Part shown: positions 4,993 to 54,697 of the stretch, piece by piece
How positions within the stretch are numbered: position 1 is the first letter of the stretch
How the letters are laid out: each line of letters begins with the position of its first letter
IMG/VR virus record: IMGVR_UViG_3300020162_001876
Span: 32,001 to 96,000 of that record
Origin: a virus
Direction: 5' to 3' (one strand)
DNA length: 64,000 nucleotides
The notes under the pieces: generated by a model
What the model saw: the letters and a program-made list of their open reading frames with translations, nothing else
Databases searched by the model: none
What the model was told of the DNA's origin: nothing
Made by a program: the position numbers and the translations under genes

Positions 4993-5023
4993 TTTGGCTC
5001 TTTAAAAGAGCCTTCTTATATTG
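4993..5023 (+). promoter_or_regulatory. Early/middle promoter (TTTG-N20-TATATT) with 17-bp palindromic spacer
   Basis: TTTG 4993-4996; GGCTCTTT-A-AAAGAGCC 4996-5012; TATATTG 5017-5023. Confidence 0.75.
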
Positions 5024-5043
5024 TATAAATTTAACTATATGTT

Positions 5044-5829
5044 ATGAATAAATTTAATAAAAAAAGATTATTTTTTGATATCGAAACTAGCCCAAATGTT
5101 GGTTTCTTTTGGTCTGCAGGTTACAAATTGAATGTACCTTATAGTAATATTATCAAAGAAAGAGCAATAATTTGTATATGTTACAAATGGGAAGATGAAG
5201 ATAAAGTATATTCTTTACAATGGGATAAAGACCAAAATGATAAAGATTTACTAGAAAAATTTATATTAGTAGCTAATGATGCTAAAGAATTAGTAGGTCA
5301 TAATGGTGATAAATTTGATTTACCTTGGATTAGAACACGATGTTTATTCCATGGTATACCTTGTTTTCCTAACTATACTACAATTGATACTTTAAAACAA
5401 GCACGTTCTAAATTTAGATTTAATAGTAATCGTTTAGATTATATAGCCCAATATTTAAATGTAGGTGAAAAATCTGAAACTGGAGGATTTGATTTATGGA
5501 AAGATATTGTACTAAACAATAGTCAAACTGCTATGAAAACTATGATTGAATATTGTAAAAATGATGTTGTAATTTTAGAGAAAGTATTCCATCATCTTAA
5601 AAATTATGTTCCTCATAAAACTCATTTTGGAGCATTAGAGACAGGAGAAAAAACCACTTGTCCTGAATGTGGTTCAGATGATTTAAGACATTCTCAAACT
5701 CGATACACCGCGGCAGGAACGCCTCGTGTTCAAGTACAATGCAATGATTGTCACAAATATCATACAGTAGCTAATAGGACATATGAAGCTATAACTGCTA
5801 ATCAATTGCAGAAAAAAATTAAAGAGTAA
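5044..5829 (+). CDS. DnaQ/RNase H-like 3'-5' exonuclease with C-terminal Zn ribbon
   Basis: FDIETS, HNGDKFDLP and YCKNDV Exo motifs; CPECG...CNDC. Confidence 0.8.
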   Translation: MNKFNKKRLFFDIETSPNVGFFWSAGYKLNVPYSNIIKERAIICICYKWEDEDKVYSLQWDKDQNDKDLLEKFILVANDAKELVGHNGDKFDLPWIRTRCLFHGIPCFPNYTTIDTLKQARSKFRFNSNRLDYIAQYLNVGEKSETGGFDLWKDIVLNNSQTAMKTMIEYCKNDVVILEKVFHHLKNYVPHKTHFGALETGEKTTCPECGSDDLRHSQTRYTAAGTPRVQVQCNDCHKYHTVANRTYEAITANQLQKKIKE

Positions 5830-5836
5830 TATTTAT
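5828..5836 (+). promoter_or_regulatory. Putative late promoter AATATTTAT
   Basis: Recurrent intergenic motif. Confidence 0.5.
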
Positions 5837-5841
5837 TTAAG

Positions 5842-6066
5842 ATGAAACTAAACGAATACCTTAAAGAAGTACAAGAAGTCCAAATTAAAATTGGAGATGA
5901 TTTCACCTTAAGAGGTGATATAGGTGTATTTAAAAAAGGAGAGATGGTTACAATTACTAATAAAAAATTAGTAGGTAATGATATTGAATTAACTTTATCA
6001 AATGGTAAAGGTAAAGAAGATAAGTTTTATTTAGATAAAAACGATGACTTTGAAGAATTAGGATAA
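5842..6066 (+). CDS. Small beta-rich hypothetical protein with MKLNEYLKE leader
   Basis: ORF track; leader motif. Confidence 0.6.
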   Translation: MKLNEYLKEVQEVQIKIGDDFTLRGDIGVFKKGEMVTITNKKLVGNDIELTLSNGKGKEDKFYLDKNDDFEELG

Positions 6067-6524
6067 TGAAACTAACCTTATTAAAAGAAATTATTAAAGA
6101 AGAATTAAAAAAGCTCTTCGAAATAGAACCAGATCCTAATTCAGAACCTGAACTTAATATAGGAGATAAAATAGAACCAGAACCTGAAGCAGAACCTACT
6201 CCTGAACCTGATCAACCTGAATCTACTTTACCCTCAGAACAACCTCTTCAAAACATTTCAAAACAAGAGGCTGCTCAAAAGATAAGAGAAACTAAAGGAA
6301 GAATGTTTACTGTTACTTTTATTAAAAAGTCTAATGGGCAAAAAAGAACAATGAATGCTCGTTTAGGTGTTAAGGCTTATTTAAGAGGAGGAGTACTCCC
6401 ATATGATCCTAATACTAAAGGATTAATACCTTGCTATGATGTCCAAACAAAAGACTATAGAATGATTAATATTCAGGGTATAGTTAATTTAAAAACTGGT
6501 GGAGTAGAATATAATGTAGTATAA
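6066..6524 (+). CDS. Leader + PE-rich linker + SH3/WYL-like (DUF2693-like) domain
   Basis: FTVTFIKKSNGQKRTMNARLG...YDVQTKDYRMINI. Confidence 0.6.
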   Translation: MKLTLLKEIIKEELKKLFEIEPDPNSEPELNIGDKIEPEPEAEPTPEPDQPESTLPSEQPLQNISKQEAAQKIRETKGRMFTVTFIKKSNGQKRTMNARLGVKAYLRGGVLPYDPNTKGLIPCYDVQTKDYRMINIQGIVNLKTGGVEYNVV

Positions 6525-6542
6525 AATAAACTAATTAGTAAG

Positions 6543-6574
6543 TTTGGCTCCTAATAGGAGCCTTCTTATATTTA
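6543..6574 (+). promoter_or_regulatory. Early/middle promoter with palindromic spacer
   Basis: TTTG; GGCTCCT-AAT-AGGAGCC 6546-6562; TATATTTA 6567-6574. Confidence 0.75.
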
Positions 6575-6594: not shown

Positions 6595-7071
6595 ATGAAT
6601 ATATTTTATATTAATGAAGATCCAATTATTGCTGCCCAAGAATTAGCAGATGATCATATTCGTAAAATGCAAATTGAATCTGCACAAATGTGTTGTACAG
6701 CTCATTGGGAAACTGGAACTGAAGCTCCTTATAAGCGAGCTCATTGGAATCATCCATCAACAAAATGGGTTAGAGAATCCATTCAGCATTATAATTGGTT
6801 AGTAGAACATGGTTTAGAAATTTGTGACCAATTTACTAAACGTTATGGTAAATTGCATAAAACACAAAGTGTATTAGAGTGGTTAAAACAAAACAAACCT
6901 CAAATTTCAGATAATGGTTTTACACCTCCCCCACAATGTATGCCTGAAGAATTTAGAATGGAAGATACAATAGAGGCTTATAAAAACTTTTATATTAATG
7001 ACAAAATTAAAATTAAAAAATTAACTTATAATAAACTAAATAATAAACCTGAATGGATAAACATATTGTAA
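6595..7071 (+). CDS. Pyrimidine-dimer DNA glycosylase (T4 endonuclease V/DenV-like family)
   Basis: MNIF...DP..AA..L.D.H..KM..E.AQM and H.NHPST.W.R motifs. Confidence 0.75.
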   Translation: MNIFYINEDPIIAAQELADDHIRKMQIESAQMCCTAHWETGTEAPYKRAHWNHPSTKWVRESIQHYNWLVEHGLEICDQFTKRYGKLHKTQSVLEWLKQNKPQISDNGFTPPPQCMPEEFRMEDTIEAYKNFYINDKIKIKKLTYNKLNNKPEWINIL

Positions 7072-8390
7072 TTGTAGGAGCTGGAGTAGCTGGTATTAAT
7101 GCTGCAACTAAACTAGTAGATAACAACTATAAAGGTAAAATTACTATTATTGATATGGGGAAAGATCCTCATAAAAGATTACCAAGTGAAGTAATGACTG
7201 GTATGTTAGGTGCTGGTGGTTGGTCTGATGGTAAATTAACTTATCATACAGCTATTGGTGGTCAATTAAAAAAATACTGTGGAGAAGATAAAGCAATGGA
7301 GTTAATGGATCAAGTTATAACTAACTTTAAACGTTTTCATCCTAAACCAGAAGAAGTACAATGTTCAAATCCTGATGCTGAACCTGATTTTATTAAACCA
7401 TATTTTGGTTTACGCTTATTCCCAGTATGGCACGTTGGAACTGATTATCTATTAGAAATAGCTAAAAATTGGTATTCATATTTAGTTGATAAAGGTGTTA
7501 ACTTTCAATGGGAAACTAAAGTAACTGATATTAATTTTAATCCATCTACTCCTGAATATAAAGTAATGATTCATTTAAATCTATTATCTGAACCTGATAA
7601 AACATATTATTTAGGAGGTGATAAACTTATCTTTGCTGTAGGTAAATCAGGTATTGACTTTGGTAAATCACTAGCAGATGAATATGAATTACCAACTGAA
7701 CCTAAATCAGTACAAATAGGTGTTCGTTTTGAAGCACCACAACATCACTTCCAAAAATTAATTGATATTTCATATGACTTTAAGTTATATAGAAAATTTG
7801 ATGATAAAGGAGTATCATTACGTTCATTCTGTACTAACAATAATGCAGCATATGTTGCAGTAGAAGAAACATACGGAAACTATACTTACAATGGTCATGC
7901 TAAAAAAGATGAACGTTATAGAAACAATATGACTAACTTCGGAATCATTATGGAGTTAAATGGTATTGAAAATCCATTTGAATGGTCAAGAAATGTTGTA
8001 TCACAATTGCAATCAGTAGATGGTAAAGGTTTATATTACTCTCCATCTCGTAAAGTATCACTTACCTCTGAAGGAGGTCATGTAGAAGCACATCAAATAA
8101 CAGAGGCTGATATGGTTGATGTAAGACACACTTTTGAAGGTTACTTTAAATATGTTGATGATTTTATTGATGATATGAAAAAAGTATTTCCAACATTAAA
8201 AGATGATTGGGGAATATATATTCCTGAAGTAAAATATCTATCACCTGAGCCACTTGTTGATTATACCAACTTAGCCCTGACTAAGTATCCTAACATACAT
8301 TTTGTTGGTGATGCACTTTCCGCTAGAGGTATAACAGTAAGTGGTGCACAAGGAATTTATGTCGCAGAAGATATATTAAAATATAATTAA
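7053..8390 (+). CDS. FAD-dependent oxidoreductase (uncharacterised dehydrogenase family)
   Basis: IVGAGVAG Rossmann motif; GAGGWSDGKL; C-terminal FVGD..ARGI. Confidence 0.85.
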   Translation: MDKHIVIVGAGVAGINAATKLVDNNYKGKITIIDMGKDPHKRLPSEVMTGMLGAGGWSDGKLTYHTAIGGQLKKYCGEDKAMELMDQVITNFKRFHPKPEEVQCSNPDAEPDFIKPYFGLRLFPVWHVGTDYLLEIAKNWYSYLVDKGVNFQWETKVTDINFNPSTPEYKVMIHLNLLSEPDKTYYLGGDKLIFAVGKSGIDFGKSLADEYELPTEPKSVQIGVRFEAPQHHFQKLIDISYDFKLYRKFDDKGVSLRSFCTNNNAAYVAVEETYGNYTYNGHAKKDERYRNNMTNFGIIMELNGIENPFEWSRNVVSQLQSVDGKGLYYSPSRKVSLTSEGGHVEAHQITEADMVDVRHTFEGYFKYVDDFIDDMKKVFPTLKDDWGIYIPEVKYLSPEPLVDYTNLALTKYPNIHFVGDALSARGITVSGAQGIYVAEDILKYN

Positions 8391-8396
8391 TTAAAA

Positions 8397-8419
8397 GGGA
8401 GGCTTGGCCTCCCATTTTT
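8397..8419 (+). terminator. Intrinsic terminator overlapping the -33 element of the next promoter
   Basis: GGGAGGC-TTG-GCCTCCC followed by ATTTTT. Confidence 0.6.
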
Positions 8420-8434
8420 GTCTTAGTATATTTA
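8403..8434 (+). promoter_or_regulatory. Early/middle promoter (CTTGGC-...-TATATTTA, 20-nt spacer)
   Basis: Same spacing as other copies; near-repeat of 8730-8761. Confidence 0.7.
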
Positions 8435-8450
8435 AGTAAATAAAAAGGTT

Positions 8451-8753
8451 ATGGAATATCAAAAACTTCATGTTATAACTGAAGAAATATATCAACAGTT
8501 ACTTGATATGATTTTTTCTAAAGATGAAAATGATTTACATCTAGCGGAAGAAATTATATTAAATGCTGATACAGATGATTTAAATACTTGTCATTATATT
8601 GAGGACATATGTTTGACTTTTGTTATAACTAAACCTCAATCACCTCTTCATCATTATTATCTAGAATTAAGAAAACAACCAAATTGGAAATTAGTCCAAG
8701 AAGTCCATTTAGCCTTTCGAGACGAAGCGTTTGGCCTCTCATTTTTACCTTAG
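8451..8753 (+). CDS. Hypothetical protein carrying L..M..SKD....LA.EI motif
   Basis: ORF track; motif shared with 9972..11039. Confidence 0.65.
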   Translation: MEYQKLHVITEEIYQQLLDMIFSKDENDLHLAEEIILNADTDDLNTCHYIEDICLTFVITKPQSPLHHYYLELRKQPNWKLVQEVHLAFRDEAFGLSFLP

Positions 8754-8761
8754 TATATTTA
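8730..8761 (+). promoter_or_regulatory. Early/middle promoter (TTTGGC-...-TATATTTA, 20-nt spacer)
   Basis: TTTG 8730-8733, TATATTTA 8754-8761. Confidence 0.7.
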
Positions 8762-8788
8762 AGCATTATTAATTTATAAATAAAAGTT

Positions 8789-9964
8789 ATGTCAAAACAA
8801 AATCTAGTATCGGTTAATGTAACCGAATTAAAAGAATTCTTAACACATATTGTTGAAAACAATCGTTTCCTACAAAGTCAAGGCAAACTACCAGTATCAA
8901 CTGAAGTCATTGGAGAATCCGGAATAGGTAAAACTTCAGCCATCGTTCAATTAGCTAAAGAGTTAGATTTAAATTTCGTTAAATTAAATTTAGCACAAAT
9001 TGAAGAAATTGGTGATTTAGTAGGTTTTCCAATTCGTCAATTTGAAGTAAAAGATGATAAAGAGACTATTTGGATTGATGAACATGCGTTTGATGAATAC
9101 CTTAAATTAGGTTATAAATCAACTGGTCAGAATCGAATGTCATATTGTCCACCTGAATGGATTGCTAACAAATCTAATGGTGGTATTTTATTATTAGATG
9201 ACTGGAATAGAGCTGATATAAGATTTATACAAGCTGTGATGGAGTTAATTGATAGACAACAATATATTAGTTGGTCTTTACCTAAAGATTGGCATATTAT
9301 ATTAACTGCTAATCCTGATAATGGAGATTATTTAGTTAATAGTATAGACAACGCACAAAAAACACGTTTTATTTCAGTACAATTAAAATATGATATTGAT
9401 TGTTGGGCTAAATGGGCTGAAGAAAATCATATTGATGGTAGATGTATTAACTTTTTATTAATGCATCCCGAATTAGTAACTAAAGATGTTAATAGTAGAA
9501 GCATATCAATGTTCTTTAATTCAATTTCATCTATTAAGAATTTTGATGACTCATTACCATTAATTCAAATGATAGGTGAAGGATCAGTAGGTCCAGAATT
9601 TAGTTCAATGTTTACTATGTTTATTAATAATAAACTAGATAAAATGATTTCACCTGAAAACATAATGAATCAAGACGAACAATATGTTTTAAATACTTTA
9701 AAATCATTAACTGGCAAAGAAGAAAAATATAGAGCTGATATCGCATCAACATTATCAACTAGAATTATTAATTTCTTAGATTTATTTGCTAAAACAAATA
9801 CTGTAGATAAACCAATCACTGAAAGATTATCTAAAATTGTAAATGAAAAAGTATTTACAACTGATATCTGCTATAATATGGTAAAATCAGTTTATAATAA
9901 TAACCCATCTAAATTCAAAACAATGATGATGGATAAGTCATTAGTTGAATTTATAATGAAATAA
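8789..9964 (+). CDS. MoxR-type AAA+ ATPase
   Basis: Walker A GESGIGKT; Walker B LLLDDWNRA; LTANP; D.AQKTRF. Confidence 0.85.
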   Translation: MSKQNLVSVNVTELKEFLTHIVENNRFLQSQGKLPVSTEVIGESGIGKTSAIVQLAKELDLNFVKLNLAQIEEIGDLVGFPIRQFEVKDDKETIWIDEHAFDEYLKLGYKSTGQNRMSYCPPEWIANKSNGGILLLDDWNRADIRFIQAVMELIDRQQYISWSLPKDWHIILTANPDNGDYLVNSIDNAQKTRFISVQLKYDIDCWAKWAEENHIDGRCINFLLMHPELVTKDVNSRSISMFFNSISSIKNFDDSLPLIQMIGEGSVGPEFSSMFTMFINNKLDKMISPENIMNQDEQYVLNTLKSLTGKEEKYRADIASTLSTRIINFLDLFAKTNTVDKPITERLSKIVNEKVFTTDICYNMVKSVYNNNPSKFKTMMMDKSLVEFIMK

Positions 9965-9971
9965 TAAAATT

Positions 9972-11039
9972 ATGATAGTAAAATGTTTAGGAATATACCA
10001 AAATTCCAGTAATAATATAGATACTAGTTGGTACGGAACAACTGATTATATTATAATAGAAGATAAAACTAAATATGAAAATCTAATAGAAAAACTATTA
10101 AATCAATCCCCTAATACTAATTTAGGGGATAAAGTTTATCTAGGTAAATTATCTAATATTCCAAGACATCGAGTTAAGGAATATTTTGAAAATTCTACAA
10201 GTAAAAAAACTTCTAGAATAGAACAAGCTAATACTATTATTTTTAGTAGAGAATATTTAACTAAATTTAAAATTTTTTTAAAAAAATTAGAATTAAAAGA
10301 ATTATTACCTTTAGAAAAAACCCAAATATTACAAGATTATATAAGAAGAAATTCAAATGAATGGACTTATAAAAAAATAGCACCTGTTTTTGAGGATAAT
10401 ACTTTATTACTTATTACAAATTATTATAAAAATACCAATTTAAATGATAATTTAGTACCTAACTTTAAAAGAATAATTGACACTACCAAAATTAAAACCC
10501 AATATATAGAGGCTTTATATCGTGATAATTATACAAAAGAAGTATTAACCTACCTAGATTTAATTTTACAAAATCCATCAATTAATATATTATTTGATGA
10601 AGATTTTCTAACCGATTTAAATTCAGATGGTATTGAATTAGATAATGATTATTTATCTACTTTAAATAGTATGTTTGAAAGTAAAGAACAAGCTAATATT
10701 AACTTAGCTTTAGAAATGTTATCTAATGTTAATATTGAAAAAAATTATTTTACTATTGCTTTACTTTTAAATAGATATCAAAATCTATTCTCATGGGGTA
10801 GTGGTTTAAGTATGTCTCAAAATAAAAGTTTTAAAAGTATTGAAAAATTCTTAAAAGATAAAGGAATCAATTATCAAGCTGATTGGAGAATATTTAATGC
10901 CGCTTTATATAAAAATGCCCAAAATGATCCTGAAAAAGTTGAAATAATAATTCGTTCAGTTTTAGATAATCTAAATAAATATATGAAAGAAGGTGGTGGA
11001 AGTGGTTTAAATTTATCAAGTATAAAATTGGCCTCTTAA
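9972..11039 (+). CDS. Hypothetical protein between MoxR and vWA genes
   Basis: ORF track; C-terminal motif shared with 8451..8753. Confidence 0.7.
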   Translation: MIVKCLGIYQNSSNNIDTSWYGTTDYIIIEDKTKYENLIEKLLNQSPNTNLGDKVYLGKLSNIPRHRVKEYFENSTSKKTSRIEQANTIIFSREYLTKFKIFLKKLELKELLPLEKTQILQDYIRRNSNEWTYKKIAPVFEDNTLLLITNYYKNTNLNDNLVPNFKRIIDTTKIKTQYIEALYRDNYTKEVLTYLDLILQNPSINILFDEDFLTDLNSDGIELDNDYLSTLNSMFESKEQANINLALEMLSNVNIEKNYFTIALLLNRYQNLFSWGSGLSMSQNKSFKSIEKFLKDKGINYQADWRIFNAALYKNAQNDPEKVEIIIRSVLDNLNKYMKEGGGSGLNLSSIKLAS

Positions 11040-11057
11040 AGAGGCCTTTGTATATTA
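11027..11057 (+). promoter_or_regulatory. Early/middle promoter with palindromic spacer
   Basis: ATTG; GGCCTCTT-A-AAGAGGCC 11030-11046; TATATTA 11051-11057. Confidence 0.7.
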
Positions 11058-11073
11058 TTAAAAAATAAAAGTT

Positions 11074-12252
11074 ATGTCTATATATCATGAAATTACAAAG
11101 TTTTCTAAAACTTTAATGTTAAAAGAACCATTTTATGGTTTATTTTTAATTTCACTTAATAAGGAATTAAATACTTCAATTCCTACAGCGTGTGTAACAC
11201 CTGATAAACTTAATATTAAGTTATGTGTTAATCCTGAATTTTGGGAAAAATTAGATGAAAATACAAAATTAGCAGTTTTAAAACATGAATTGTTACATAT
11301 TGCATTTTTTCATTTACAACATTTTGATCGTTTCCCTAATAAAAAGTTATATAACGTAGCTGCTGATTTAGAAATCAATCAATATATTCAAGATGAATAT
11401 AAAGGTGAAAAATGGGATGGATTAGAATTTGATGAAGGTATTTATAAACCTTTAAATTTATTACCTAAACAAGGTACTAAATATTATTATGATAAATTGC
11501 AAGATGAATTAGATAATAATCCTGATGGTGATTTTGCTAATTATATGAATGGAATGGAGATTGATATTCATGATTTATGGGAAGCTATGGAAGGAATGGG
11601 TGAAGCAGAACGTAAATTAATAGGTAAACAAGTTGACCATCAATTAAAAGCAATTGCAGAAGAATTAGAAAAGCGCTCTAAAGGTCGAGGATTAATACCT
11701 TCTGAAATGAAGGACTATATAGACTCGTTATTTGAAATAACTGAACCTGTTTTAGATTGGAAAGCATACTTAAGAAGATTTAGTAATACCTCAAATAAAA
11801 TTATTACTAAAAAGACTAGACGTAAATTAAATAAACGTTACTCAGACAATCCCGCATTAAAAATTAAACTTAAAAAATCTACATTAGTAGCAATTGATAC
11901 ATCAGGTTCAGTTTCAAATAGTGAATTAGCAGAATTTTTTAATGAAATTTACCACATTTATAAAACTGGTACTAAAGTAACAGTAGTAGAATGTGATGCT
12001 AATATTCAAAGAGTTTACGAATATAAAGGTAAATTAGAAGATTTATCTGTTCAAGGTAGAGGTGGTACGGATTTTGAACCTGTAATGAAGTATTTAGTAG
12101 AACATAAAAATGAATTTGATAATTTAATTTATTTAACTGATGGTGAATGCAGTTCACCTGCTACTAAACCCTTAAAACCTATATTATGGGTGCATAGCTC
12201 AAAATCAAGAATAAACGAAGAATTACCAGGTACTAAAATTAAAATACAATAA
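11074..12252 (+). CDS. Metallopeptidase-vWA protein (DUF2201-like)
   Basis: HELLH (HExxH), N.A.DLEINQ, MIDAS DTSGS, GGGT-like GRGGTDF, LTDG. Confidence 0.85.
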   Translation: MSIYHEITKFSKTLMLKEPFYGLFLISLNKELNTSIPTACVTPDKLNIKLCVNPEFWEKLDENTKLAVLKHELLHIAFFHLQHFDRFPNKKLYNVAADLEINQYIQDEYKGEKWDGLEFDEGIYKPLNLLPKQGTKYYYDKLQDELDNNPDGDFANYMNGMEIDIHDLWEAMEGMGEAERKLIGKQVDHQLKAIAEELEKRSKGRGLIPSEMKDYIDSLFEITEPVLDWKAYLRRFSNTSNKIITKKTRRKLNKRYSDNPALKIKLKKSTLVAIDTSGSVSNSELAEFFNEIYHIYKTGTKVTVVECDANIQRVYEYKGKLEDLSVQGRGGTDFEPVMKYLVEHKNEFDNLIYLTDGECSSPATKPLKPILWVHSSKSRINEELPGTKIKIQ

Positions 12253-12255
12253 GTT

Positions 12256-12957
12256 ATGTCACCAATGGGAATATTAAATAAAATACAAGAGTTTATCAAT
12301 CCTGATAAAAATAATGTTAAAACATTACCTCAAAAATATGATGATATTATATTTGCCCTAACTAATATTAATGATAAATTAGTATTAGGTGGTAGTTTAG
12401 GATTATATGTAATGGGTGTTATAGATTATGATTTTAAAAATCGTAAACCTGATATAGATTTTAGTTTAACTGAACAATTAACTGAAGAAGAATTACTTAC
12501 TCTTAAAGATTTTTTCAATTTAGAATTAGTAATCACCAGTGGGGATTATGATATAATTCCAGTTTCTGAGAATGGTTATGAACATAAACTTCCTAAAACT
12601 AAATCTATTTCACATTTTATTCAAAAAGAATTAATTCAACTAAGAAAAACATCTACTGAATGGATTACACCTGCAGGTGATAGTGGTTACATAGAATATA
12701 CTGTAGACTTTTTTAATAGCCAATATATTAAAAAAAGAGATATTATTTATGTTGATTATAATGGGGTAAAACTTAAAGTTAATCATCCATCTATCACATT
12801 ATCTTATAAATCAAGATACGCCTATGATAATAGAGTAGGTAAACAATACAAACACTTTAAAGATATTGGTGATATTAATTGGAAAAAATACTTTCAAATA
12901 GTAAAAAGTATTAAATCCCAATGGGTAGAAGATACATGGTTTAATGAATTTTCTTAA
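12256..12957 (+). CDS. Putative nucleotidyltransferase (Pol beta superfamily)
   Basis: LGGSLGL...PDIDF (G-S-x-DxD) plus later VDFF. Confidence 0.6.
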   Translation: MSPMGILNKIQEFINPDKNNVKTLPQKYDDIIFALTNINDKLVLGGSLGLYVMGVIDYDFKNRKPDIDFSLTEQLTEEELLTLKDFFNLELVITSGDYDIIPVSENGYEHKLPKTKSISHFIQKELIQLRKTSTEWITPAGDSGYIEYTVDFFNSQYIKKRDIIYVDYNGVKLKVNHPSITLSYKSRYAYDNRVGKQYKHFKDIGDINWKKYFQIVKSIKSQWVEDTWFNEFS

Positions 12958-12964
12958 AATATTT

Positions 12965-12974
12965 AATATTTATA
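12965..12974 (+). promoter_or_regulatory. Putative late promoter AATATTTATA
   Basis: Recurrent intergenic motif. Confidence 0.55.
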
Positions 12975-12989
12975 GAAAAATAATTATAA

Positions 12990-13472
12990 ATGTCTACTAT
13001 TGTATTGCTAAGTTGTACTAAATCTAAATTAGATAAACCCTCACAGGCGCAAGATTTATATTCTGCGTCTCCTACGTTTAAAAAAACATTAGAGTACGGT
13101 AAATCACTTAAGCCCGATAAAATGTATATTCTATCGGCAAAGCATTATTTAGTGCCTTTAACCAAAGTTTTGGCGCCATATGATAAAACTCTTAAAGAAA
13201 TGCCTAAAGAAGAAAAAGAGGCTTGGGGTGAAAAAGTATTAAATCAAATGAAACAAGTAGGAATTAATCCTGAAAAGGATCATTTTATATTTTTAACAGG
13301 TACAGAATATATGAAACCTCTATTAAAATACATTCCTGAAAATCATACTGAAATGCCTATGTCAGGTAAACGTATGGGTGAACGTATGAAATGGTTAAAC
13401 CAACAAATACAAGGTATTAAAGAAATAGTAAATTACGTTAAAAAAACATTATATGAATACTTCTCAAAATAA
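12990..13472 (+). CDS. DUF6884-like protein
   Basis: LLSCTKSK...A.DLY...ILSAKH.LV....PYD.TL pattern. Confidence 0.65.
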   Translation: MSTIVLLSCTKSKLDKPSQAQDLYSASPTFKKTLEYGKSLKPDKMYILSAKHYLVPLTKVLAPYDKTLKEMPKEEKEAWGEKVLNQMKQVGINPEKDHFIFLTGTEYMKPLLKYIPENHTEMPMSGKRMGERMKWLNQQIQGIKEIVNYVKKTLYEYFSK

Positions 13473-13698
13473 ATTACAAGAATATATTACTTTATATTTA
13501 AATGATTTAGAAGATTATGGAGATCAAGTTGATTGGTTATTAGCTGAGAGTGCTTTAAATCCTCTTAAAAAACTTCTTGTAGAATCCTTGGATACCTCGA
13601 ATCTTAATACTATATTGTATGAAGCTTATCAAAAAGCATCACCTGTAAAACAACATATTATCAAAGATTTTATATCTTATATAAAACAAATAAATTAA
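13453..13698 (+). CDS. Hypothetical protein
   Basis: ORF track; LxE-rich. Confidence 0.55.
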   Translation: MNTSQNKLQEYITLYLNDLEDYGDQVDWLLAESALNPLKKLLVESLDTSNLNTILYEAYQKASPVKQHIIKDFISYIKQIN

Positions 13699-13704
13699 TT
13701 CCTT

Positions 13705-13956
13705 ATGGAAACAGTTACAAATAATGATTATAGAACACGCACTATAAAAACGCCTGATAAAATACAAATTACCTTTTTTGATAATAAATTTCACTGTTGG
13801 GATCATGCAGCAATTAAATATCCTAAAGAAATGAAGAAAAAAGATGAATACTACCTTTATGGTTTTCAATATACTAAAGAAGATTGGGTTGAAGCACGTA
13901 AAGATAGAAATGGAGTGCCTCCAGATAAGAACCCACAAGTTAAATCAAGATTTTAA
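13705..13956 (+). CDS. Small hypothetical protein (H.WD.AAI.Y...EYYLYG pattern)
   Basis: ORF track. Confidence 0.6.
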   Translation: METVTNNDYRTRTIKTPDKIQITFFDNKFHCWDHAAIKYPKEMKKKDEYYLYGFQYTKEDWVEARKDRNGVPPDKNPQVKSRF

Positions 13957-13964
13957 TAAATAAA

Positions 13965-13996
13965 TTTGGCTCCTGTAAGGAGCCTTATTATATTAA
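13965..13996 (+). promoter_or_regulatory. Early/middle promoter with palindromic spacer
   Basis: TTTG; GGCTCCT-GTA-AGGAGCC 13968-13984; TATATTAA 13989-13996. Confidence 0.75.
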
Positions 13997-14019
13997 TATA
14001 TTATAAAAATTAAAGTTAT

Positions 14020-14550
14020 ATGAAAATAGGTTTATGTGGTACAGTAAGTGTTGGAAAAACAACATTAGTTAATGCTTTAAAAGAATTACCACAATTTAAA
14101 GATTATTATTTTGCTACTGAACGTAGTAAATATTTAAGAGATTTAGGCATTCCTCTAAATACTGATTCAACATTAAAAGGTCAGACAATATTCTTATCAG
14201 AACGTTGTGCTGAATTAATGCATGAAAATATGATTACTGATAGAACAGTTATTGATGTAATGTCATTTACACAAGCTGCTAAATCAATAAAAGTAGCAGA
14301 TAAAATTTCATATGAGGAATATGCTCGTAATTTCATTAATGAGTATGATTATATTTTTTATGTATCTCCTGATGGGGTAGAAATAGAAGATAATGGAGTA
14401 AGAGAAACTAATGCTGAATATAGAGATCAAATTGATTTTCTTATTAAAGGTATTCTTACAATTTACTCACATAGAATCAAAAATTTACATACAATATCAG
14501 GTAGTACTGAGGAAAGAATTAAACAAATAATAGAAACCATTTCTTTATAA
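14020..14550 (+). CDS. P-loop nucleoside/nucleotide kinase (NadR/AAA_28-like)
   Basis: GTVSVGKTT; ITDRTVID; EDNGVR. Confidence 0.75.
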   Translation: MKIGLCGTVSVGKTTLVNALKELPQFKDYYFATERSKYLRDLGIPLNTDSTLKGQTIFLSERCAELMHENMITDRTVIDVMSFTQAAKSIKVADKISYEEYARNFINEYDYIFYVSPDGVEIEDNGVRETNAEYRDQIDFLIKGILTIYSHRIKNLHTISGSTEERIKQIIETISL

Positions 14551-15709: not shown

Positions 15710-17308
15710 ATGAGTGATCAACAACTTCCATTAAAGGAAATCATAAAACAAGAATGGTTAAGATGTCATCAGGACCCAGTTTATTTTATGAAAAAATATT
15801 ATTGGATTCAACATCCTCAACGAGGAAGAATTCAATTTAATTTATACCCATTCCAAGAAAAAGTATTACAGCAAATTCAAAAGAATGAGTATACAATTAT
15901 TAACAAATCAAGACAGCTAGGTATATCAACATTAGCATCAGCTTATGCTTTATGGTTAATGTTATTTAATAAAGATAAAAACATACTTTGTATAGCAACC
16001 AAGCAAGAAACTGCTAAAAATATGGTTACTAAAGTACGTTTTGCTTATGATAACTTACCTAAATGGATGAAATCTGGTGAGAAACCAGCTGAGAATAATA
16101 AATTATCTCTTAAGTTAACTAATGGTTCTCAAATTAAAGCTGTTGGTGCAACAGCAGATGCTGGTAGATCTGAAGCTGTTTCTTTTCTTATTATTGATGA
16201 GGCAGCGTTTATTGAGGGAATCGATGAGATATTCGCATCAGCACAACAAACCTTAGCAACTGGGGGACAATGTTTAGCGTTATCTACGCCTTATGGTACA
16301 GGTAATTGGTTTCATAAATCTTTTACTAAAGCCCAAGCTAAAGAAAATAAATTTGTCCCTTTAAGATTACCTTGGACAGTACATCCTGAACGAGATCAAA
16401 CTTGGAGAGATGCCCAAGATGAAATTTTAGGGCTTAGACATGCAGCTCAAGAATGTGATTGTGATTTTAGCACATCAGGAGATACTGTTATTGAACCTGA
16501 TATGCTTAATTTCTTAGAATCTACTTTTGTAACAGAACCTATTGAAAGACGAGGAATAGATGGATCTTTATGGATATGGGAACAACCTGATTATTCAAAA
16601 TCTTATATGGTTGTAGCCGATGTTGCTAGAGGTGATGGAAGTGATTACTCAGCATTTCATATTTTTGATATAGCTGAAGCTAAACAAGTAGCTGAATTTA
16701 AATCTCAAGTAACAACTAAAGATTATGCTCATATTTTATTTTCAATAGCTACAGAATATAATGATGCCTTATTAGTAGTAGAAAATGCTAATATTGGTTG
16801 GAGTGTATTAGAACAATTAATAGATAGAGGGTATAGAAATTTATATTATTCTTCTAAAGCAGATACAACAATGGGTGCTAACGAAAACCAACTAGCAAGA
16901 ATGGAAAACGGCCAAGGTATGCTCCCAGGCTTTACTACTTCAATGAAGACAAGACCACTTTGTATCTCAAAATTAGTTTCGTACATTCAAGAAAAATCAG
17001 TTACAATACAATCTAAAAGATTATTAGATGAATTAAGAACTTTTGTTTGGAAAAATGGTAAAGCCCAATCACAAAATGGATACAATGATGACTTAGTAAT
17101 GTCATTCAGTATTGGTTTATTTTTACGTGATACTGCTCTTCGTTTTAGACAACAAGGTTTAGATTTAACTAGAGCTACTTTAGGAAGTTTTCATGTTTCA
17201 AGTCAACAAGCTCCAAGTGTATTCTCATATAATAATCATACAGATAACCCTTACAAAATGGATAATGGGGTAGGAGGAACTGAAGACTTTAGTTGGCTTC
17301 TTGGTTAA
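15710..17308 (+). CDS. terL: Terminase large subunit (T4 gp17-like)
   Basis: LYPFQ; KSRQLGIST; IIDEAAF; STPYG; nuclease DVARGDG.DYS and DDLVMS. Confidence 0.95.
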   Translation: MSDQQLPLKEIIKQEWLRCHQDPVYFMKKYYWIQHPQRGRIQFNLYPFQEKVLQQIQKNEYTIINKSRQLGISTLASAYALWLMLFNKDKNILCIATKQETAKNMVTKVRFAYDNLPKWMKSGEKPAENNKLSLKLTNGSQIKAVGATADAGRSEAVSFLIIDEAAFIEGIDEIFASAQQTLATGGQCLALSTPYGTGNWFHKSFTKAQAKENKFVPLRLPWTVHPERDQTWRDAQDEILGLRHAAQECDCDFSTSGDTVIEPDMLNFLESTFVTEPIERRGIDGSLWIWEQPDYSKSYMVVADVARGDGSDYSAFHIFDIAEAKQVAEFKSQVTTKDYAHILFSIATEYNDALLVVENANIGWSVLEQLIDRGYRNLYYSSKADTTMGANENQLARMENGQGMLPGFTTSMKTRPLCISKLVSYIQEKSVTIQSKRLLDELRTFVWKNGKAQSQNGYNDDLVMSFSIGLFLRDTALRFRQQGLDLTRATLGSFHVSSQQAPSVFSYNNHTDNPYKMDNGVGGTEDFSWLLG

Positions 17309-17314
17309 AATCCA

Positions 17315-17324
17315 AATATTTATA
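17315..17324 (+). promoter_or_regulatory. Putative late promoter AATATTTATA
   Basis: Recurrent intergenic motif before portal. Confidence 0.6.
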
Positions 17325-17341
17325 ATATATAATAAAATTTT

Positions 17342-19270
17342 ATGGTAGATACTTCATTCTTTGGTAGATTACAAAGATTATTTTCAACAGATGTAATAAT
17401 AAGAAATGTTGGAGGTAATCAATTAAAAGTAATGGATACAGATCGTATCCAACAACTTGGTACTATCCAAACAAACTCACTTTATGATAGATATAATAAA
17501 GTTTATACTACTACAGGTGGACTAAATTTTAATTATAATAATGATTTATCATATCCTACTACACGTATTCAGTTATACACTGATTATGAATTAATGGATA
17601 GTGATTCAATTATTGCTTCTACATTAGATATATTAGCTGATGAAACTTGTTTAAGAAATGATTTAGGAGAAGTATTACAAATACGATCTTCAGATGAAAC
17701 CATACAAAAAATACTTTATAATTTATTTTATGATGTATTAAATATCGAGTTTAATCTTTGGTCTTGGACTCGTAATATGTGTAAGTATGGCGATTTTTAT
17801 CTTAAATTAGAAATATCAGAGAAATTTGGTGTATATAATGTAATACCATTTTCTTCTTATTCTATTATTAGATTAGAAGGTAAAAATCCTGAAAAGCCGC
17901 AAGAAGTAAAATTCAAATATGATCCAACTTTTACATCTCAACAATCACCATTAGGTCCTCAAGTTATTTCTAATTATAATCGCAATACTAATGAAGGTAT
18001 AATTTTTGATAATTATGAAATGGCTCACTTCAGATTATTATCTGATTTTAATTATTTACCTTATGGTAGATCTTATATTGAGCCTGCTCGTAAAATTTTC
18101 AAACAATTAACTTTAATGGAAGACGCGATGTTAATACATCGTATTGTAAGAGCACCTGAAAAACGTACATTCTTTATTAATGTTGGTAATATTCCACCTA
18201 ATGAGGTAGAAAATTACATGCAAAAGACTATTAATAAGATGAAGAAAACTCCGCATATTGATCATCAAACTGGTGAATACAATTTAAAATATAATATGCA
18301 AAACATTCTTGAGGATTTTTACATTCCAGTAAGAGGTGGAGATGCAACTACAAGAATTGAGACTACAAAAGGATTAGAATACACTGCTATAGAAGATGTT
18401 ACTTATTTAAGAGATAAATTATTCGCTGCTCTTAAAGTTCCAAAAGCTTATTTTGGATTTGAAAAAGATTTAACAGGTAAAGCAACTTTAGCTGCTGAAG
18501 ATATTCGTTTTGTAAGAACTGTAGAGAGAATTCAAAGAATATTAATATCTGAATTAACCAAAATTGCTTTAGTTCATTTATACTCACAAGGATATGATGG
18601 GGAGTCATTAACTAATTTTGAATTATCATTAACAGTTCCTTCAATTATATATGAACAAGAAAAAGTAGCCTTATTAAAAGAAAAATCTGGATTAGCTACT
18701 GAATTATTACAAAATAAAATTGTTCCTACTGACTGGATTTATGATAATATTTTCCATTTTAGTGAAGATCAATATGATGAATATAGAGATTTAATACTTG
18801 AAGACGCTAAACGTAAGTTTAGAATAGATCAAATTGAAACTGAAGGTAATGATCCTTATAAAACAGGTGAAGCTTATGGTACGCCACATGCTTTAGCATC
18901 ACTTTATGGTTCTAGTAGATATCCTGGTACAGAAGGTGTGCCAAAAGGGTATAATGAAGATGGTGATACTTATCCTGATCAAGTATTAGGACGTCCTAAA
19001 GAAAGATCATCAAATATTAATACTCAAGATAGTGCTCTAGGTAAAGATAGATTAGGTAGAATTGGAATGAAAAAAGATGATTCTGAATCTAAAGGATTTA
19101 AAACTTCTTATAAAGGTGGTTCTCCATTAGCTTTAGAAAATGTTGCAACACAAGCAATTTATCATCAAATTTCAAATAATTTAAAAAATATGTTCCCTCA
19201 ACGTAAAATAAAATTGTATGAAGAGAGCGATTTATTAAATGAAGATAACCTTTTAAAAGAAGATAAATAA
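17342..19270 (+). CDS. Portal protein (T4 gp20-like)
   Basis: L.LMEDAMLIHRI.RAPE.R.F.I.VGN.P; EDFYIP.RG; ALKVPK. Confidence 0.95.
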   Translation: MVDTSFFGRLQRLFSTDVIIRNVGGNQLKVMDTDRIQQLGTIQTNSLYDRYNKVYTTTGGLNFNYNNDLSYPTTRIQLYTDYELMDSDSIIASTLDILADETCLRNDLGEVLQIRSSDETIQKILYNLFYDVLNIEFNLWSWTRNMCKYGDFYLKLEISEKFGVYNVIPFSSYSIIRLEGKNPEKPQEVKFKYDPTFTSQQSPLGPQVISNYNRNTNEGIIFDNYEMAHFRLLSDFNYLPYGRSYIEPARKIFKQLTLMEDAMLIHRIVRAPEKRTFFINVGNIPPNEVENYMQKTINKMKKTPHIDHQTGEYNLKYNMQNILEDFYIPVRGGDATTRIETTKGLEYTAIEDVTYLRDKLFAALKVPKAYFGFEKDLTGKATLAAEDIRFVRTVERIQRILISELTKIALVHLYSQGYDGESLTNFELSLTVPSIIYEQEKVALLKEKSGLATELLQNKIVPTDWIYDNIFHFSEDQYDEYRDLILEDAKRKFRIDQIETEGNDPYKTGEAYGTPHALASLYGSSRYPGTEGVPKGYNEDGDTYPDQVLGRPKERSSNINTQDSALGKDRLGRIGMKKDDSESKGFKTSYKGGSPLALENVATQAIYHQISNNLKNMFPQRKIKLYEESDLLNEDNLLKEDK

Positions 19271-19274
19271 AATT

Positions 19275-19284
19275 AATATTTATA
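19275..19284 (+). promoter_or_regulatory. Putative late promoter AATATTTATA
   Basis: Recurrent intergenic motif. Confidence 0.6.
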
Positions 19285-19311
19285 ATTAGTAGTTAACTAT
19301 ATATTGAATAA

Positions 19312-20830: not shown

Positions 20831-20979
20831 TGGCAGCCGTAAAATCAAAATCAAGTTCTACACCAACTAAAATAGATAAACCTAAAAGAAAAAGACCTGG
20901 TGTTCATTCTAAATCTAAAACTTCTAAGTTAAAAGGTTCTAAGAATTATAAAAAATTATATAGAGGACAAGGACTTTAA
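20830..20979 (+). CDS. 49-aa very basic protein missed by ORF track (MAAVKSKS...KKLYRGQGL)
   Basis: TAATG-coupled ATG at 20830, TAA at 20977-20979; fills the gap exactly. Confidence 0.7.
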   Translation: MAAVKSKSSSTPTKIDKPKRKRPGVHSKSKTSKLKGSKNYKKLYRGQGL

Positions 20980-20980
20980 A

Positions 20981-20990
20981 AATATTTATA
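20981..20990 (+). promoter_or_regulatory. Putative late promoter AATATTTATA
   Basis: Recurrent motif, 3 nt before ATG. Confidence 0.5.
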
Positions 20991-20993
20991 CCC

Positions 20994-26079: not shown

Positions 26080-26100
26080 ATAAATTAAAACAATAAAAAA

Positions 26101-41825: not shown

Positions 41826-42078
41826 AATAAATTTATTTTCTCAAATGAATGAAATAGTATTTCATGGTAAAGGAGGGTATACTTGGGATACAGTTTATAA
41901 TTGGCCTATTTGGCTTCGAAATTTTACCTTTAAAAAATTAAAAGAATGGTATGATAAAGAACAAGCACAAGCCGAAGCCCAAAATAATCAATTAACAAAT
42001 AATAATGTAGCTGAAGTAGCTAGACCTAATATTCTTCCAACAAGTACATATAATGCAACAGTGCCTACCAAAAAGTAG
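41758..42078 (+). CDS. Downstream chaperone ORF (gp51/gpT-like); probably reached by frameshift at 41796-41808 or started at ATG 41845
   Basis: Overlaps upstream gene across a T7 run; W..VYN.PIWLR motif. Confidence 0.65.
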   Translation: MMAGRTSQYLLVLTFFGLTTSYRINLFSQMNEIVFHGKGGYTWDTVYNWPIWLRNFTFKKLKEWYDKEQAQAEAQNNQLTNNNVAEVARPNILPTSTYNATVPTKK

Positions 42079-42085
42079 GCACTTT
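42062..42085 (+). terminator. Terminator hairpin, left copy of 24-bp direct repeat
   Basis: TGCCTAC-CAAAAA-GTAGGCA-CTTT. Confidence 0.75.
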
Positions 42086-42095
42086 TTATCTATTC

Positions 42096-42105
42096 AATAT
42101 TTATA
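42096..42105 (+). promoter_or_regulatory. Putative late promoter AATATTTATA
   Basis: Recurrent intergenic motif. Confidence 0.6.
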
Positions 42106-42119
42106 TTAAAATTAAAATA

Positions 42120-42821
42120 ATGATATATTTAAAAGAAATAATTAAAGAAATTCTTATACAAGAGTTTACTCAAACTGATTTTAATAAAGCAAAAACCTGG
42201 GATGAAATTGTAAACTTATTTTCTCAATATAAAAGAGATTTAACCCCTTTTACTAAATATAAAGAAGAACATTCATTTTTAGGAAGCGGAAAAAACGGAA
42301 AAGTATTTAAAATAGAAAACTCAGATAAAGTTATTAAAATTACTAAAAATATATATGATATTTATATAGCTGATGATTTATTAGGAACCTCATATAAACA
42401 TTTACCTAAAATTTATAACGTAGTTGGATATGAAGAAGGAGTAAAAAACCCTTATTCTAAAAGAAGCAAATACGCAGGTGTTATAGTAATGGAATATTTA
42501 AATGAACTTCCAAAAGACTTATTCAAATTATTTTTAATGATGTTCCCTAATTATAATAAAAAAGGATTTTGGATGACAGATTTTTTAGATGGTATTTTAG
42601 ATAGTAATGAAATAGGACAGTTATTAATAGAACTAGACCCTACAATTGAATCTACTATTAAAAAATATGATTTTTTAAATCAATTAGAAGGAATAAAAAA
42701 TGATTTAAATCAAGCATTTGATTTAGAAGAAATAAGTGACCAACTAGACCCAACTCCAGGTAATTTCTTAATGAGAGGAAATACAATAGTATTTACTGAT
42801 ATAGTACAATCTGATAATTAA
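42120..42821 (+). CDS. Protein kinase-like protein with N-terminal LKEIIKEILIQE leader
   Basis: LGSGKNGKVF, VIKIT, HLPKIY, IVMEYL, DPTPGN, FTDI. Confidence 0.8.
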   Translation: MIYLKEIIKEILIQEFTQTDFNKAKTWDEIVNLFSQYKRDLTPFTKYKEEHSFLGSGKNGKVFKIENSDKVIKITKNIYDIYIADDLLGTSYKHLPKIYNVVGYEEGVKNPYSKRSKYAGVIVMEYLNELPKDLFKLFLMMFPNYNKKGFWMTDFLDGILDSNEIGQLLIELDPTIESTIKKYDFLNQLEGIKNDLNQAFDLEEISDQLDPTPGNFLMRGNTIVFTDIVQSDN

Positions 42822-42847
42822 AATTTAATTTTATTTTAATATAATAA

Positions 42848-42871
42848 TGCCTACTAAAAAGTAGGCACTTT
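42848..42871 (+). terminator. Terminator hairpin, right copy of 24-bp direct repeat
   Basis: TGCCTAC-TAAAAA-GTAGGCA-CTTT, one mismatch to left copy. Confidence 0.75.
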
Positions 42872-52780: not shown

Positions 52781-52800
52781 AATCTTAAATAATAAATTAA

Positions 52801-52832
52801 TTTGGCTCCTATAAGGAGCCTTTTTATATTTA
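52801..52832 (+). promoter_or_regulatory. Early/middle promoter with palindromic spacer
   Basis: TTTG; GGCTCCT-ATA-AGGAGCC 52804-52820; TATATTTA 52825-52832. Confidence 0.75.
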
Positions 52833-52851
52833 ATTAAATAAAGGTTATAAT

Positions 52852-54183
52852 ATGTTTTATATAGTAGAATCACAAGAGCAATTATCGCAATTACATCCAC
52901 AAGAAAGTTGTTATATTAATACAATCCCATTATCATCTAACTACCACCCAGTATTAACTGAAGTATCATTAATTTATTATAAACCAAAATATGGTAAGGG
53001 ATTAGTATTTACTATAAATCACAGTGAGGGATTTTACTTAAGTTTAGATAAAGTAAAAGAATTTATTTTAAACCATAAAATAATTTATGTTTTAGATAAA
53101 AAAACCACTTCTCATTTAATAGGAGAGGAATTTTTACAAAGTAAAGTACAAGATATTAATTTATTGTCATTACACGCCTCCCCAATCACTCCGTATATAC
53201 AAGATTGTGAAACAAGCATTCACACTCATTTCCAAAGACTTTATAAGGATAAACCATATTTAAACTCTATTATTCCTATTTGTAAACATTATGACACTCA
53301 AGAAAAAATTTATAATGTAATACAAGAATGGGTAGAAAAACAACATGAAATCAAGTATTATAACGAGGAATATATTAAAGTGTTCTATCACATCGAAAAG
53401 CAAGGTATAACGTTAGATTTACCGGTTTTTAATGAAAGTTTTAATTTAAGTAATCCTAAATTTAATATAAAAGATGATAAAATTTATACACAATTTAACT
53501 TAAATAATTTTACTTCTCGTCCTTCAAATTCATTTAATGGAATAAATTTTGCAGCTTTAAATAAACATAATGGACAACGAGCCTCTTTTATACCTCAAAA
53601 TGATTACTTATTTGAATTTGATTATGATTCATATCATCCTCGTATTTTAGCTAAATTAATTGGATATGAATTTGAGGAAGAATCAGTTCATACTCATTTA
53701 GGGCAAATGTATTTTAAAACCAATATATTAACAGAGGAACAATACCAACAATCTAAAGAGTTAACATTTAAACAACTATATGGAGGGGTTTTTGAACAAT
53801 ATAAAGATATTCCATATTTTGCTAAAATTATCCAATATACTGATAAAATATATAAAGATTTTAATTCCCTGGGATATATTGAATTAATAGGAGGGAGAAA
53901 ACTATATAATATAGAAAATGCAACTCCACAAAAACTATTAAATTATATAATACAATCAGGAGAAACTTTTTATAATGTAAATTCTATAAAGAAAGTATTA
54001 GAATATTTGGAGAATAAAAAAAGTAATATTATCTTATATACCTACGATTCTATATTAATAGATTATGATAAAGAAGATGGAAAAGAAACTCTAAAAGGTA
54101 TTAGAAATATATTAGAAAATAGTTTTGGATTTAAAATAAACGCTAGTTATGGGACAAATTACAATAATTTAACAAAAATATAA
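52852..54183 (+). CDS. Compact, divergent family A DNA polymerase
   Basis: TSRPSN; motif A FDYDSYHPRILA; motif B SKELTFKQLYG; NY.IQ; motif C YTYDSILID. Confidence 0.8.
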   Translation: MFYIVESQEQLSQLHPQESCYINTIPLSSNYHPVLTEVSLIYYKPKYGKGLVFTINHSEGFYLSLDKVKEFILNHKIIYVLDKKTTSHLIGEEFLQSKVQDINLLSLHASPITPYIQDCETSIHTHFQRLYKDKPYLNSIIPICKHYDTQEKIYNVIQEWVEKQHEIKYYNEEYIKVFYHIEKQGITLDLPVFNESFNLSNPKFNIKDDKIYTQFNLNNFTSRPSNSFNGINFAALNKHNGQRASFIPQNDYLFEFDYDSYHPRILAKLIGYEFEEESVHTHLGQMYFKTNILTEEQYQQSKELTFKQLYGGVFEQYKDIPYFAKIIQYTDKIYKDFNSLGYIELIGGRKLYNIENATPQKLLNYIIQSGETFYNVNSIKKVLEYLENKKSNIILYTYDSILIDYDKEDGKETLKGIRNILENSFGFKINASYGTNYNNLTKI

Positions 54184-54192
54184 ATAAAAATT

Positions 54193-54660
54193 ATGATTAA
54201 TACACAGGTTATAGATCCTTCATATATTTATTTCAAATACGACATTGATGTCACATGCCCTGATTTAAAAGATATGAATAAATTATTTTGCACATTTTCT
54301 AGCAAAAATGACTTAGAGGAAACTCTTTCAAAAATACAATCTCAATACAAAATTTTATTTAGTAAAATATTTGTACTATACATAGAATCTACTGAGGAAT
54401 ATGTTTGTACTTATAATATAGATCATAATAATATGACTAATAACTTATTATATAATACTATTTTATTACATAGAAAGAAAGAAAGTAATACTCTTTATAC
54501 TATTAATGCTTTAAATGATTTGATTAAATCATTAAATGGTGGTGTGTTAGATAATAGTTTTATGATTAATTGGAGAGATTATCAAAATAGTATATTACTT
54601 ACTCATACAGGAGCATTGAAAAAACTTGATACTAAGATTTACAAAATAATCACTTTATAA
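54193..54660 (+). CDS. Conserved-looking hypothetical protein (true start may be ATG 54274)
   Basis: MNKLFCTF...HRKKE.NTLYTINALN. Confidence 0.65.
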   Translation: MINTQVIDPSYIYFKYDIDVTCPDLKDMNKLFCTFSSKNDLEETLSKIQSQYKILFSKIFVLYIESTEEYVCTYNIDHNNMTNNLLYNTILLHRKKESNTLYTINALNDLIKSLNGGVLDNSFMINWRDYQNSILLTHTGALKKLDTKIYKIITL

Positions 54661-54665
54661 AAACA

Positions 54666-54697
54666 TTTGGCTTCCTTAGGAAGCCTTATTATATTTA
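54666..54697 (+). promoter_or_regulatory. Early/middle promoter with palindromic spacer
   Basis: TTTG; GGCTTCCT-T-AGGAAGCC 54669-54685; TATATTTA 54690-54697. Confidence 0.75.

Follow-up and report, generated by a model that had tools for sequence, protein, structure and literature searches.

Promoter motif and spacing

Why would a phage place a stem-loop between the -35 box and the -10 box of its promoters? The question is raised by a 64,000-nucleotide (nt) stretch of viral DNA (here called the window), bases 32001 to 96000 of the 110,998-bp IMG/VR record IMGVR_UViG_3300020162_001876 (CheckV completeness, 68%). Eight plus-strand, intergenic sites in the window read TTGGC-N18-TATATT, and six of them hold a 17-nt palindrome that starts inside the -35 hexamer and stops just short of the -10 box. 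We consider it likely that these six sites are composites in which an intrinsic terminator is nested in a host sigma-A-type early/middle promoter.

An earlier note on this DNA had listed the same eight sites, with coordinates 1 base upstream of those used here (Table 1), and had claimed a strict 20-nt distance between TTG and TATATT. Both points were borne out. TTG-N20-TATATT occurred 14 times in the window, compared with 4.18 ± 2.19 times in shuffled sequence (0 of 100 shuffles reached 14), while the spacing controls TTG-N17-TATATT and TTGGC-N15-TATATT were absent from the window (4.19 and 0.10 expected, respectively). Across the whole record, exact matches to TTGGC-N18-TATATT numbered 17 on the forward strand and 1 on the reverse strand, with 0 in a backwards control, and every forward match lay between genes, 17 to 43 nt ahead of an ATG. 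Record totals were seven copies with a spacer hairpin and three with a hairpin over the -35 box. The sole minus-strand match (window positions 12695 to 12723) fell within a plus-strand gene (12256 to 12957) and could be either a chance match or an antisense promoter.

TTG-N20-TATATT corresponds to a -35 hexamer (TTGGCT) separated by a 17-bp spacer from a -10 hexamer, and a generic sigma-70 scan picked the same sites as TTGGCT-17-TATATT. The sites also fit the Bacteroidota sigma-A pattern of TTTG, ~20 nt, and TAnnTT. In Bacteroidota sigma-A promoters, 19 to 21 nt separate TTTG (-33) from TAnnTTTG (-7). Among relatives of the phage, the -10 box varied at the nn positions only (TACATT, TATGTT, and TACGTT). 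The sigma-A box of F. psychrophilum, TAnnTTTG, spans positions -12 to -5 (PMC9723704). Neither this phage nor two complete relatives yielded a match to a sigma-70 region-2 domain. A search of this phage for a T7-like RNA polymerase (PF00940) was also negative but uninformative, since the same search matched 0 of 14 control genomes. Because the motif fits sigma-A and no phage sigma factor was detected, the eight sites are most simply interpreted as putative host sigma-A promoters. The TTGGC class would then represent early/middle promoters, a timing supported by a separate motif that looks like a late class (see below). As the earlier note had stated, the genes downstream were nonvirion genes, encoding a DNA polymerase exonuclease subunit, a DNA-binding protein, an ATPase, an HNH-like protein, thymidylate kinase, a DNA polymerase domain, and SSB. 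Most members of this promoter family, in the record as in its relatives, lack a palindrome; those of the record lie in small-gene arrays at 1 to 5.5 kb and 101 to 109 kb, with TTGGnnnGTATAAAATAACTTCGTATATT as a typical sequence.

The spacer hairpin as a probable sense-strand RNA terminator

All six of the 17-nt palindromes quoted in the earlier note were exact. Its description of the palindrome as filling the entire spacer was accurate for 13 of the 17 spacer bases, but the repeat also takes in the final 4 bases of the -35 hexamer and leaves TTnT free before the -10 box. Predicted RNA folds of the six sites had free energies of -11.2 to -14.9 kcal/mol (z scores of -2.5 to -4.6 relative to shuffles), in comparison with a z score of +0.4 for the hairpin-less site at 8731. 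An independent terminator scan ranked each palindrome among the best plus-strand sites, with 7 pairs (4 to 5 of them G-C), a loop of 3 nt, and 5 or more T among the 8 bases that follow; in total the scan returned 23 terminator-like sites, compared with 5.5 ± 2.8 expected (1 to 20 kb).

Compensatory change in the arms, which had been proposed from the window alone, was confirmed in an alignment (A1) of 34 distinct paralogous and orthologous sites that were chosen for pairing and whose orthologues are not independent: five of the seven pairs were doubly changed (25 cells), a value reached by 0 of 500 shuffles. Registers slid along the same alignment scored far below the true one. At the SSB gene, for example, a pair that is C-G in this phage is T-A at the same position in two relatives, G001 and L250. 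G-U cells were concentrated at the two outer pairs (7 of 10), the only non-pairs adjoined the loop, and the hairpins of relatives also used UUCG and GAAA loops. G-U pairs point to the RNA level, because the opposite strand or a cruciform would hold an A-C mismatch in their place.

The sequence past the stem differed between promoters with and without a hairpin. The base directly ahead of the -10 box was G in 2 of 18 hairpin promoters and in 58 of 92 hairpin-less promoters (Fisher P = 5e-5), with T in its place, and the 8 nt past the stem were richer in T in the hairpin class (P = 1e-6). Where it is present, the hairpin thus behaves like a sense-strand RNA hairpin, as judged from folding and covariation. 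The reading of these elements as an upstream terminator fused to a downstream promoter, one of several that had been put forward, is favored by the terminator scan, by covariation with G-U pairs on the sense strand, and by the T-richer 3' flank.

Table 1. Promoter elements of the window and examples of the putative late motif (elements start at the TTG unless another promoter start is given)
Feature	Position	Strand	Hairpin	Free energy (kcal/mol)	z score	Context and remarks
Promoter TTGGCT-17-TATATT with hairpin	4994-5022	+	4996-5012 (7-bp stem, loop of 3)	-12.2	-3.98	Tail TTCTTATATT; upstream of DNA polymerase exonuclease-subunit gene 5044-5829
Promoter with embedded hairpin	6544-6572	+	6546-6562	-14.9	-3.85	Upstream of DNA-binding protein gene 6595-7071
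Promoter with hairpin straddling -35 (second geometry)	8397-8432	+	8397-8413 (TTG in loop)	-13.9		Promoter 8404-8432; hairpin followed by ATTTTTG in spacer
Promoter copy without hairpin	8731-8759	+			+0.38	Near-duplicate of the 8404 promoter
Promoter with embedded hairpin	11028-11056	+	11030-11046	-14.1	-4.64	Upstream of HNH-like gene 11074-12252
Promoter with embedded hairpin	13966-13994	+	13968-13984			Upstream of thymidylate kinase gene 14020-14550; missing at the orthologous junction of closest complete relative G001
Promoter with embedded hairpin	52802-52830	+	52804-52820			Border of virion-gene block and DNA polymerase (polymerase-domain) gene 52852-54183
Promoter with embedded hairpin	54667-54695	+	54669-54685			Upstream of SSB, UvsX-like, exonuclease, DnaB, and RNR block (54739 onwards)
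Motif ATATTTATA, examples	14550, 17316, 19276, 20982, 26071, 28129, 28848, 40478, 41050, 42097, 42874, 47551, 52035, 59072, 61851	+				

Several of the elements are packed tightly against their neighbors. The loop of the 11028 hairpin (11037 to 11039) is the stop codon of the upstream open reading frame (ORF) at 9972 to 11039. The promoters at 8404 and 8731 belong to ~34-bp copies (8404 to 8437 and 8731 to 8764) that differ by 3 mismatches and bracket a 100-amino-acid (aa) ORF (8451 to 8753), whose stop codon (8751 to 8753) lies within the spacer of the 8731 promoter. The geometry in which the hairpin straddles the -35 box occurs in this genome at the 8404 promoter and at record positions 1832 and 2455. 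At four sites (4986 to 5020, 6536 to 6570, 11020 to 11054, and 13958 to 13993), an A-rich stretch ahead of the -35 box (e.g., AATAAG) is able to base-pair with T-rich sequence past the hairpin (CTTAT), which adds 5 to 7 weak pairs to the fold, as in A-tract terminators.

Conservation of the promoter and of the hairpin among relatives

Upstream regions of the SSB gene were collected from 63 distinct IMG/VR relatives, gathered through neighboring proteins. At this orthologous site, TTG-N20-TAnnTT was kept in 61 of the 63 relatives. A spacer hairpin was present in 9, a -35-straddling hairpin followed by a T run inside the spacer in 12, and no terminator-like hairpin in 40. Spacer folding energies over five related genomes were bimodal: of 226 pattern matches, 155 were no better than -1 kcal/mol and 19 were at -6 kcal/mol or better, nearly all of the latter in one register. 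The cultured phage immuto had 39 forward promoter matches, compared with 2 in the control, and two of these, at positions 33322 and 67962 of its record NC_055915, carried spacer hairpins with UUCG loops (GGCTC-TTCG-GAGCC and GCCTC-TTCG-GAGGC). A hairpin-specific pattern found 5 loci in IMG/VR, with near relatives outside that search. Among 119 unrelated IMG/VR matches listed for TTTGGC-N15-TTNTTATATT, none had the 17-nt palindrome and 2 had any hairpin of -6 kcal/mol or lower, which corresponds to the chance background.

The promoter is therefore the conserved unit, and the hairpin comes, goes, and shifts register. The fixed geometry that the earlier note had ascribed to the dual element does not hold, since relatives differ in the register of the hairpin, which is optional in an otherwise conserved promoter. 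What is constant across registers is the order of a hairpin and then a T-rich stretch, upstream of the -10 box.

Alternative explanations

A palindrome that sits exactly between two promoter boxes could also act as DNA. Under supercoiling it might be extruded as a cruciform or hairpin, to serve as an N4-type promoter or as a topology-sensitive switch that alters the -35/-10 geometry and shuts off early genes. N4 early-promoter hairpins are similar in size (7-bp stem, 3-nt loop) and also lie in the promoter region. We regard a role of this kind as very improbable. The boxes persist in 61 of 63 orthologues and the palindrome is mostly missing, so the promoter does not require it; certain other relatives have the hairpin displaced onto the -35 box, with the T run after it retained; and each sense-strand G-U pair would be an A-C mismatch on the other cruciform strand. 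With only 9 of the orthologues carrying a spacer hairpin, an N4-like hairpin-dependent promoter was rejected. The hairpin here differs from that of N4: it is dispensable and sits between a canonical -35 box and a canonical -10 box, G-U pairs are tolerated in its stem, and a T run comes after it. No virion RNA polymerase was recognized. A phage sigma factor gene was not found, the polymerase search was uninformative as noted above, and the one large ORF checked as a possible polymerase (1,876 aa; L327:127-5757, record positions 16626 to 22256, ~10 to 15 kb before the window and conserved in relatives) had no sequence match in Pfam, PHROG, or PDB. A language-model comparison placed it near viral hypothetical proteins, one cluster of them with Laminin_G_3, and it is probably a virion appendage protein. 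No observation supports the cruciform, the supercoiling switch, or the shut-off protein site that had been offered as explanations.

A palindrome over the promoter spacer is also in the classic position for a repressor, and a dimeric phage or host regulator bound to such an operator could repress the promoters of replication genes at a late stage of infection. Conservation is good at the outer bases GGCTC/GAGCC, and hairpin-class sites are concentrated at replication genes. However, the arms covary in a way that preserves pairing, with G-U in place of G-C, which is unexpected for a protein that reads identical half-sites. Wholly different stems (GGATAC/GTATC and GGAGTCTC/GAGACTCC) stand at this position in relatives, and the GGC is already explained by the -35 motif, which has it in palindrome-less promoters too. 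A dimeric-repressor operator predicts neither the covariation nor unrelated stems at the same place, and we rejected it as a quite unlikely explanation. The RNA hairpin might instead act mainly after transcription, as a protective 3' cap or a processing signal on read-through RNA, a function that could exist alongside termination. The same pairing evidence would apply, and the imperfect U tract leaves strong termination unassured. Yet T enrichment right after the stem and the constant order of hairpin and then T run in every register are the signature of intrinsic termination, and a promoter-early stem-loop from a T4-type phage (see below) terminated in Escherichia coli about as well as rrnB T1 (PMC2839356); a mainly posttranscriptional role appears unlikely.

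Several points weigh against a terminator nested in a promoter. Termination and promoter activity are both predicted from sequence. The U tract is interrupted (e.g., UUCUUAUAUU) and the 7-bp stem is short, so that termination may be partial. The set of sites that revealed covariation was picked for pairing. T enrichment could mark two promoter subclasses rather than a need of the terminator, and the orthologues behind it are not independent. Finally, the left arm is always pyrimidine rich (GGCTCC), which could be explained by common ancestry or a sequence requirement.

Proposed mechanism

In the nested arrangement that we favor, the conserved GGC of the -35 box would double as the G-C-rich base of an RNA hairpin with 7 bp and a 3-nt loop, and TTnT-TATATT, which ends in the -10 box, would serve as its U tract. 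A polymerase arriving from upstream would then let go of its RNA within the -10 box, and the new transcript would begin ~7 nt past that box. Stop signal, promoter, and leader together span 58 to 78 bp between genes. The single register in this clade might follow from the requirement that the stem begin in the -35 box and finish just before the only T-rich stretch.

It is conceivable, though we think it improbable, that the nesting, beyond saving space, acts as a hand-off device, in which release of the RNA in the -10 box leaves the polymerase on the next promoter. Bacterial RNA polymerase is reported to remain often on the DNA once its RNA has been released by an intrinsic terminator, and to be capable of starting again from a promoter close by (PMC6978380). 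Such a device would couple the expression of each replication operon to transcription of the preceding one, with the division of the messages into separate units preserved. In a weaker variant, a cruciform sensitive to supercoiling would adjust these promoters while the phage DNA replicates. Only if the hand-off idea is true would the element raise a new mechanistic question.

Genome context and putative late motif

The window has a GC content of ~29%, and its plus strand carries essentially all long ORFs. The large terminase had 60% identity to that of Flavobacterium phage vB_FspM_immuto (genus Immutovirus; 160 kb; host, Flavobacterium sp. LMO8), the nearest cultured relative, whose record has T4-like gp20 and gp23 proteins annotated beside the terminase gene. 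The portal protein of the window matched a PHROGs portal family, megablast of the window against cultured phages gave no match, and an Rfam search of the window returned no family. By these protein matches the phage appears to be a T4-like myovirus with distant kinship to T4. The likely host group, Flavobacterium/Bacteroidota, fits the promoter type, given that a Flavobacterium is the host of the nearest cultured relative.

Virion-protein genes occupy 15.7 to 52 kb of the window. Replication and nucleotide-metabolism genes, among them those for a split DNA polymerase, SSB, a UvsX-like recombinase, DnaB, RNR, and thymidylate kinase, are found at 1 to 14.5 kb and from 52.8 kb onwards. The DNA polymerase is apparently divided between the exonuclease-subunit gene and the polymerase-domain gene (Table 1), which are ~47 kb apart and flank the virion-gene block; both halves sit behind hairpin-carrying promoters.

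The motif ATATTTATA occurred 21 times in the window, all on the plus strand, compared with 8.3 expected. Most copies were 10 to 50 nt ahead of virion-gene starts, often directly past a canonical terminator. The motif recalls the T4 late box TATAAATA and, given its position, probably defines a late-promoter class. Terminators of the virion region abut ATATTTATA directly (e.g., at 41014, 42060, 47521, and 61825), so tight joints between terminator and promoter seem to be a general habit of this genome. Two near-identical terminator hairpins (42060 to 42083 and 42848 to 42867), each followed by ATATTTATA, bracket one gene (42120 to 42821). This whole unit (42089 to 42837), a kinase cassette, is missing between its repeated terminators in G001 and looks like a late-type cassette insertion. 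A four-gene, 2-kb block (26089 to 28121) between canonical terminators at 26031 and 28086 is absent from G001 and different in a second relative, G002.

Possible gene shuffling and comparison with known systems

Some differences from G001 coincide with the hairpin promoters. A 5.6-kb block bounded by elements (8390 to 14018) is replaced by 256 bp in G001, a gene directly behind a hairpin promoter (6601 to 7052) is missing there, and an extra 1 kb is inserted in G001 precisely at the 54667 element (54653 to 54658). These single cases are suggestive of shuffling. Over all indels, edges fell within 70 bp of an element in 12 of 21 cases (G001) and 16 of 29 cases (G002), with no excess over the ~63% expected by chance, given that ~39% of all gene junctions carry an element. 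We claim no role in shuffling, because indel edges relative to the two genomes meet elements no more often than edges placed at random gene junctions would.

The promoters resemble Flavobacterium sigma-A promoters (PMC9723704) in their TTTG, ~20-nt distance, and TAnnTT, and in their short leaders without a Shine-Dalgarno sequence. They differ in that the phage box, TATATT(T/A)(A/G), lacks the final TG of the host consensus and in that the conserved GC that follows TTG and the TT(C)G ahead of the box are phage specific.

The closest parallel is with the "promoter-early stem-loops" (PeSLs) of the T4-type coliphages RB49 and phi1, intergenic cassettes that combine a strong sigma-70-like promoter with a stem-loop (Arbiol et al. 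2010, PMC2839356), later extended to the phage pairs of PST and nt-1 (Comeau et al. 2014, PMC4122927). In RB49 and phi1 the stem-loop is most often between the -35 box and the -10 box (PMC2839356, figure 2 legend), and both promoter and terminator activities were demonstrated with lacZ fusions (PMC2839356). The novelty implied by the earlier note was therefore overstated, as its central arrangement is the commonest PeSL form in T4-type phages, and the architecture is already known from the same broad phage lineage. A literature search found no description of PeSLs in Bacteroidota phages, which is not proof of absence. If our reading is right, PeSL-type composite promoter-terminators would extend from T4-type phages of Proteobacteria to widespread freshwater and marine T4-like phages of Bacteroidota with a different promoter grammar. 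The analysis also provides a sequence definition of three candidate annotation signals, namely, early promoters (TTGG-N19-TATATT), hairpin-carrying replication-gene promoters, and the late motif, and the small stop-and-restart unit of 29 bp could find use as a genetic part in flavobacteria, for which few terminators have been characterized.

By structural criteria, the element appears to work like a PeSL. Both are intergenic composites of an early promoter for the host primary sigma factor and a terminator stem-loop, with activities that are predicted here; both have an AT-rich stretch upstream and many copies per genome, and both occur in T4-like phages, with some copies that bracket single small genes (here, at 8404 and 8731). 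The promoters of the window have canonical spacing and repeated copies genome-wide; six hairpins begin at the G of TTG and end 4 nt short of the -10 box, and one lies over the -35 box. In contrast to PeSLs, the promoter is of the Bacteroidota type (TTG/TAnnTT) with a short leader that lacks a Shine-Dalgarno sequence, and the stems are GGCTCC/GGAGCC rather than G-run/C-run. PeSLs are found at ORFans in hyperplastic regions, whereas the hairpin copies described here are mainly before core replication genes.

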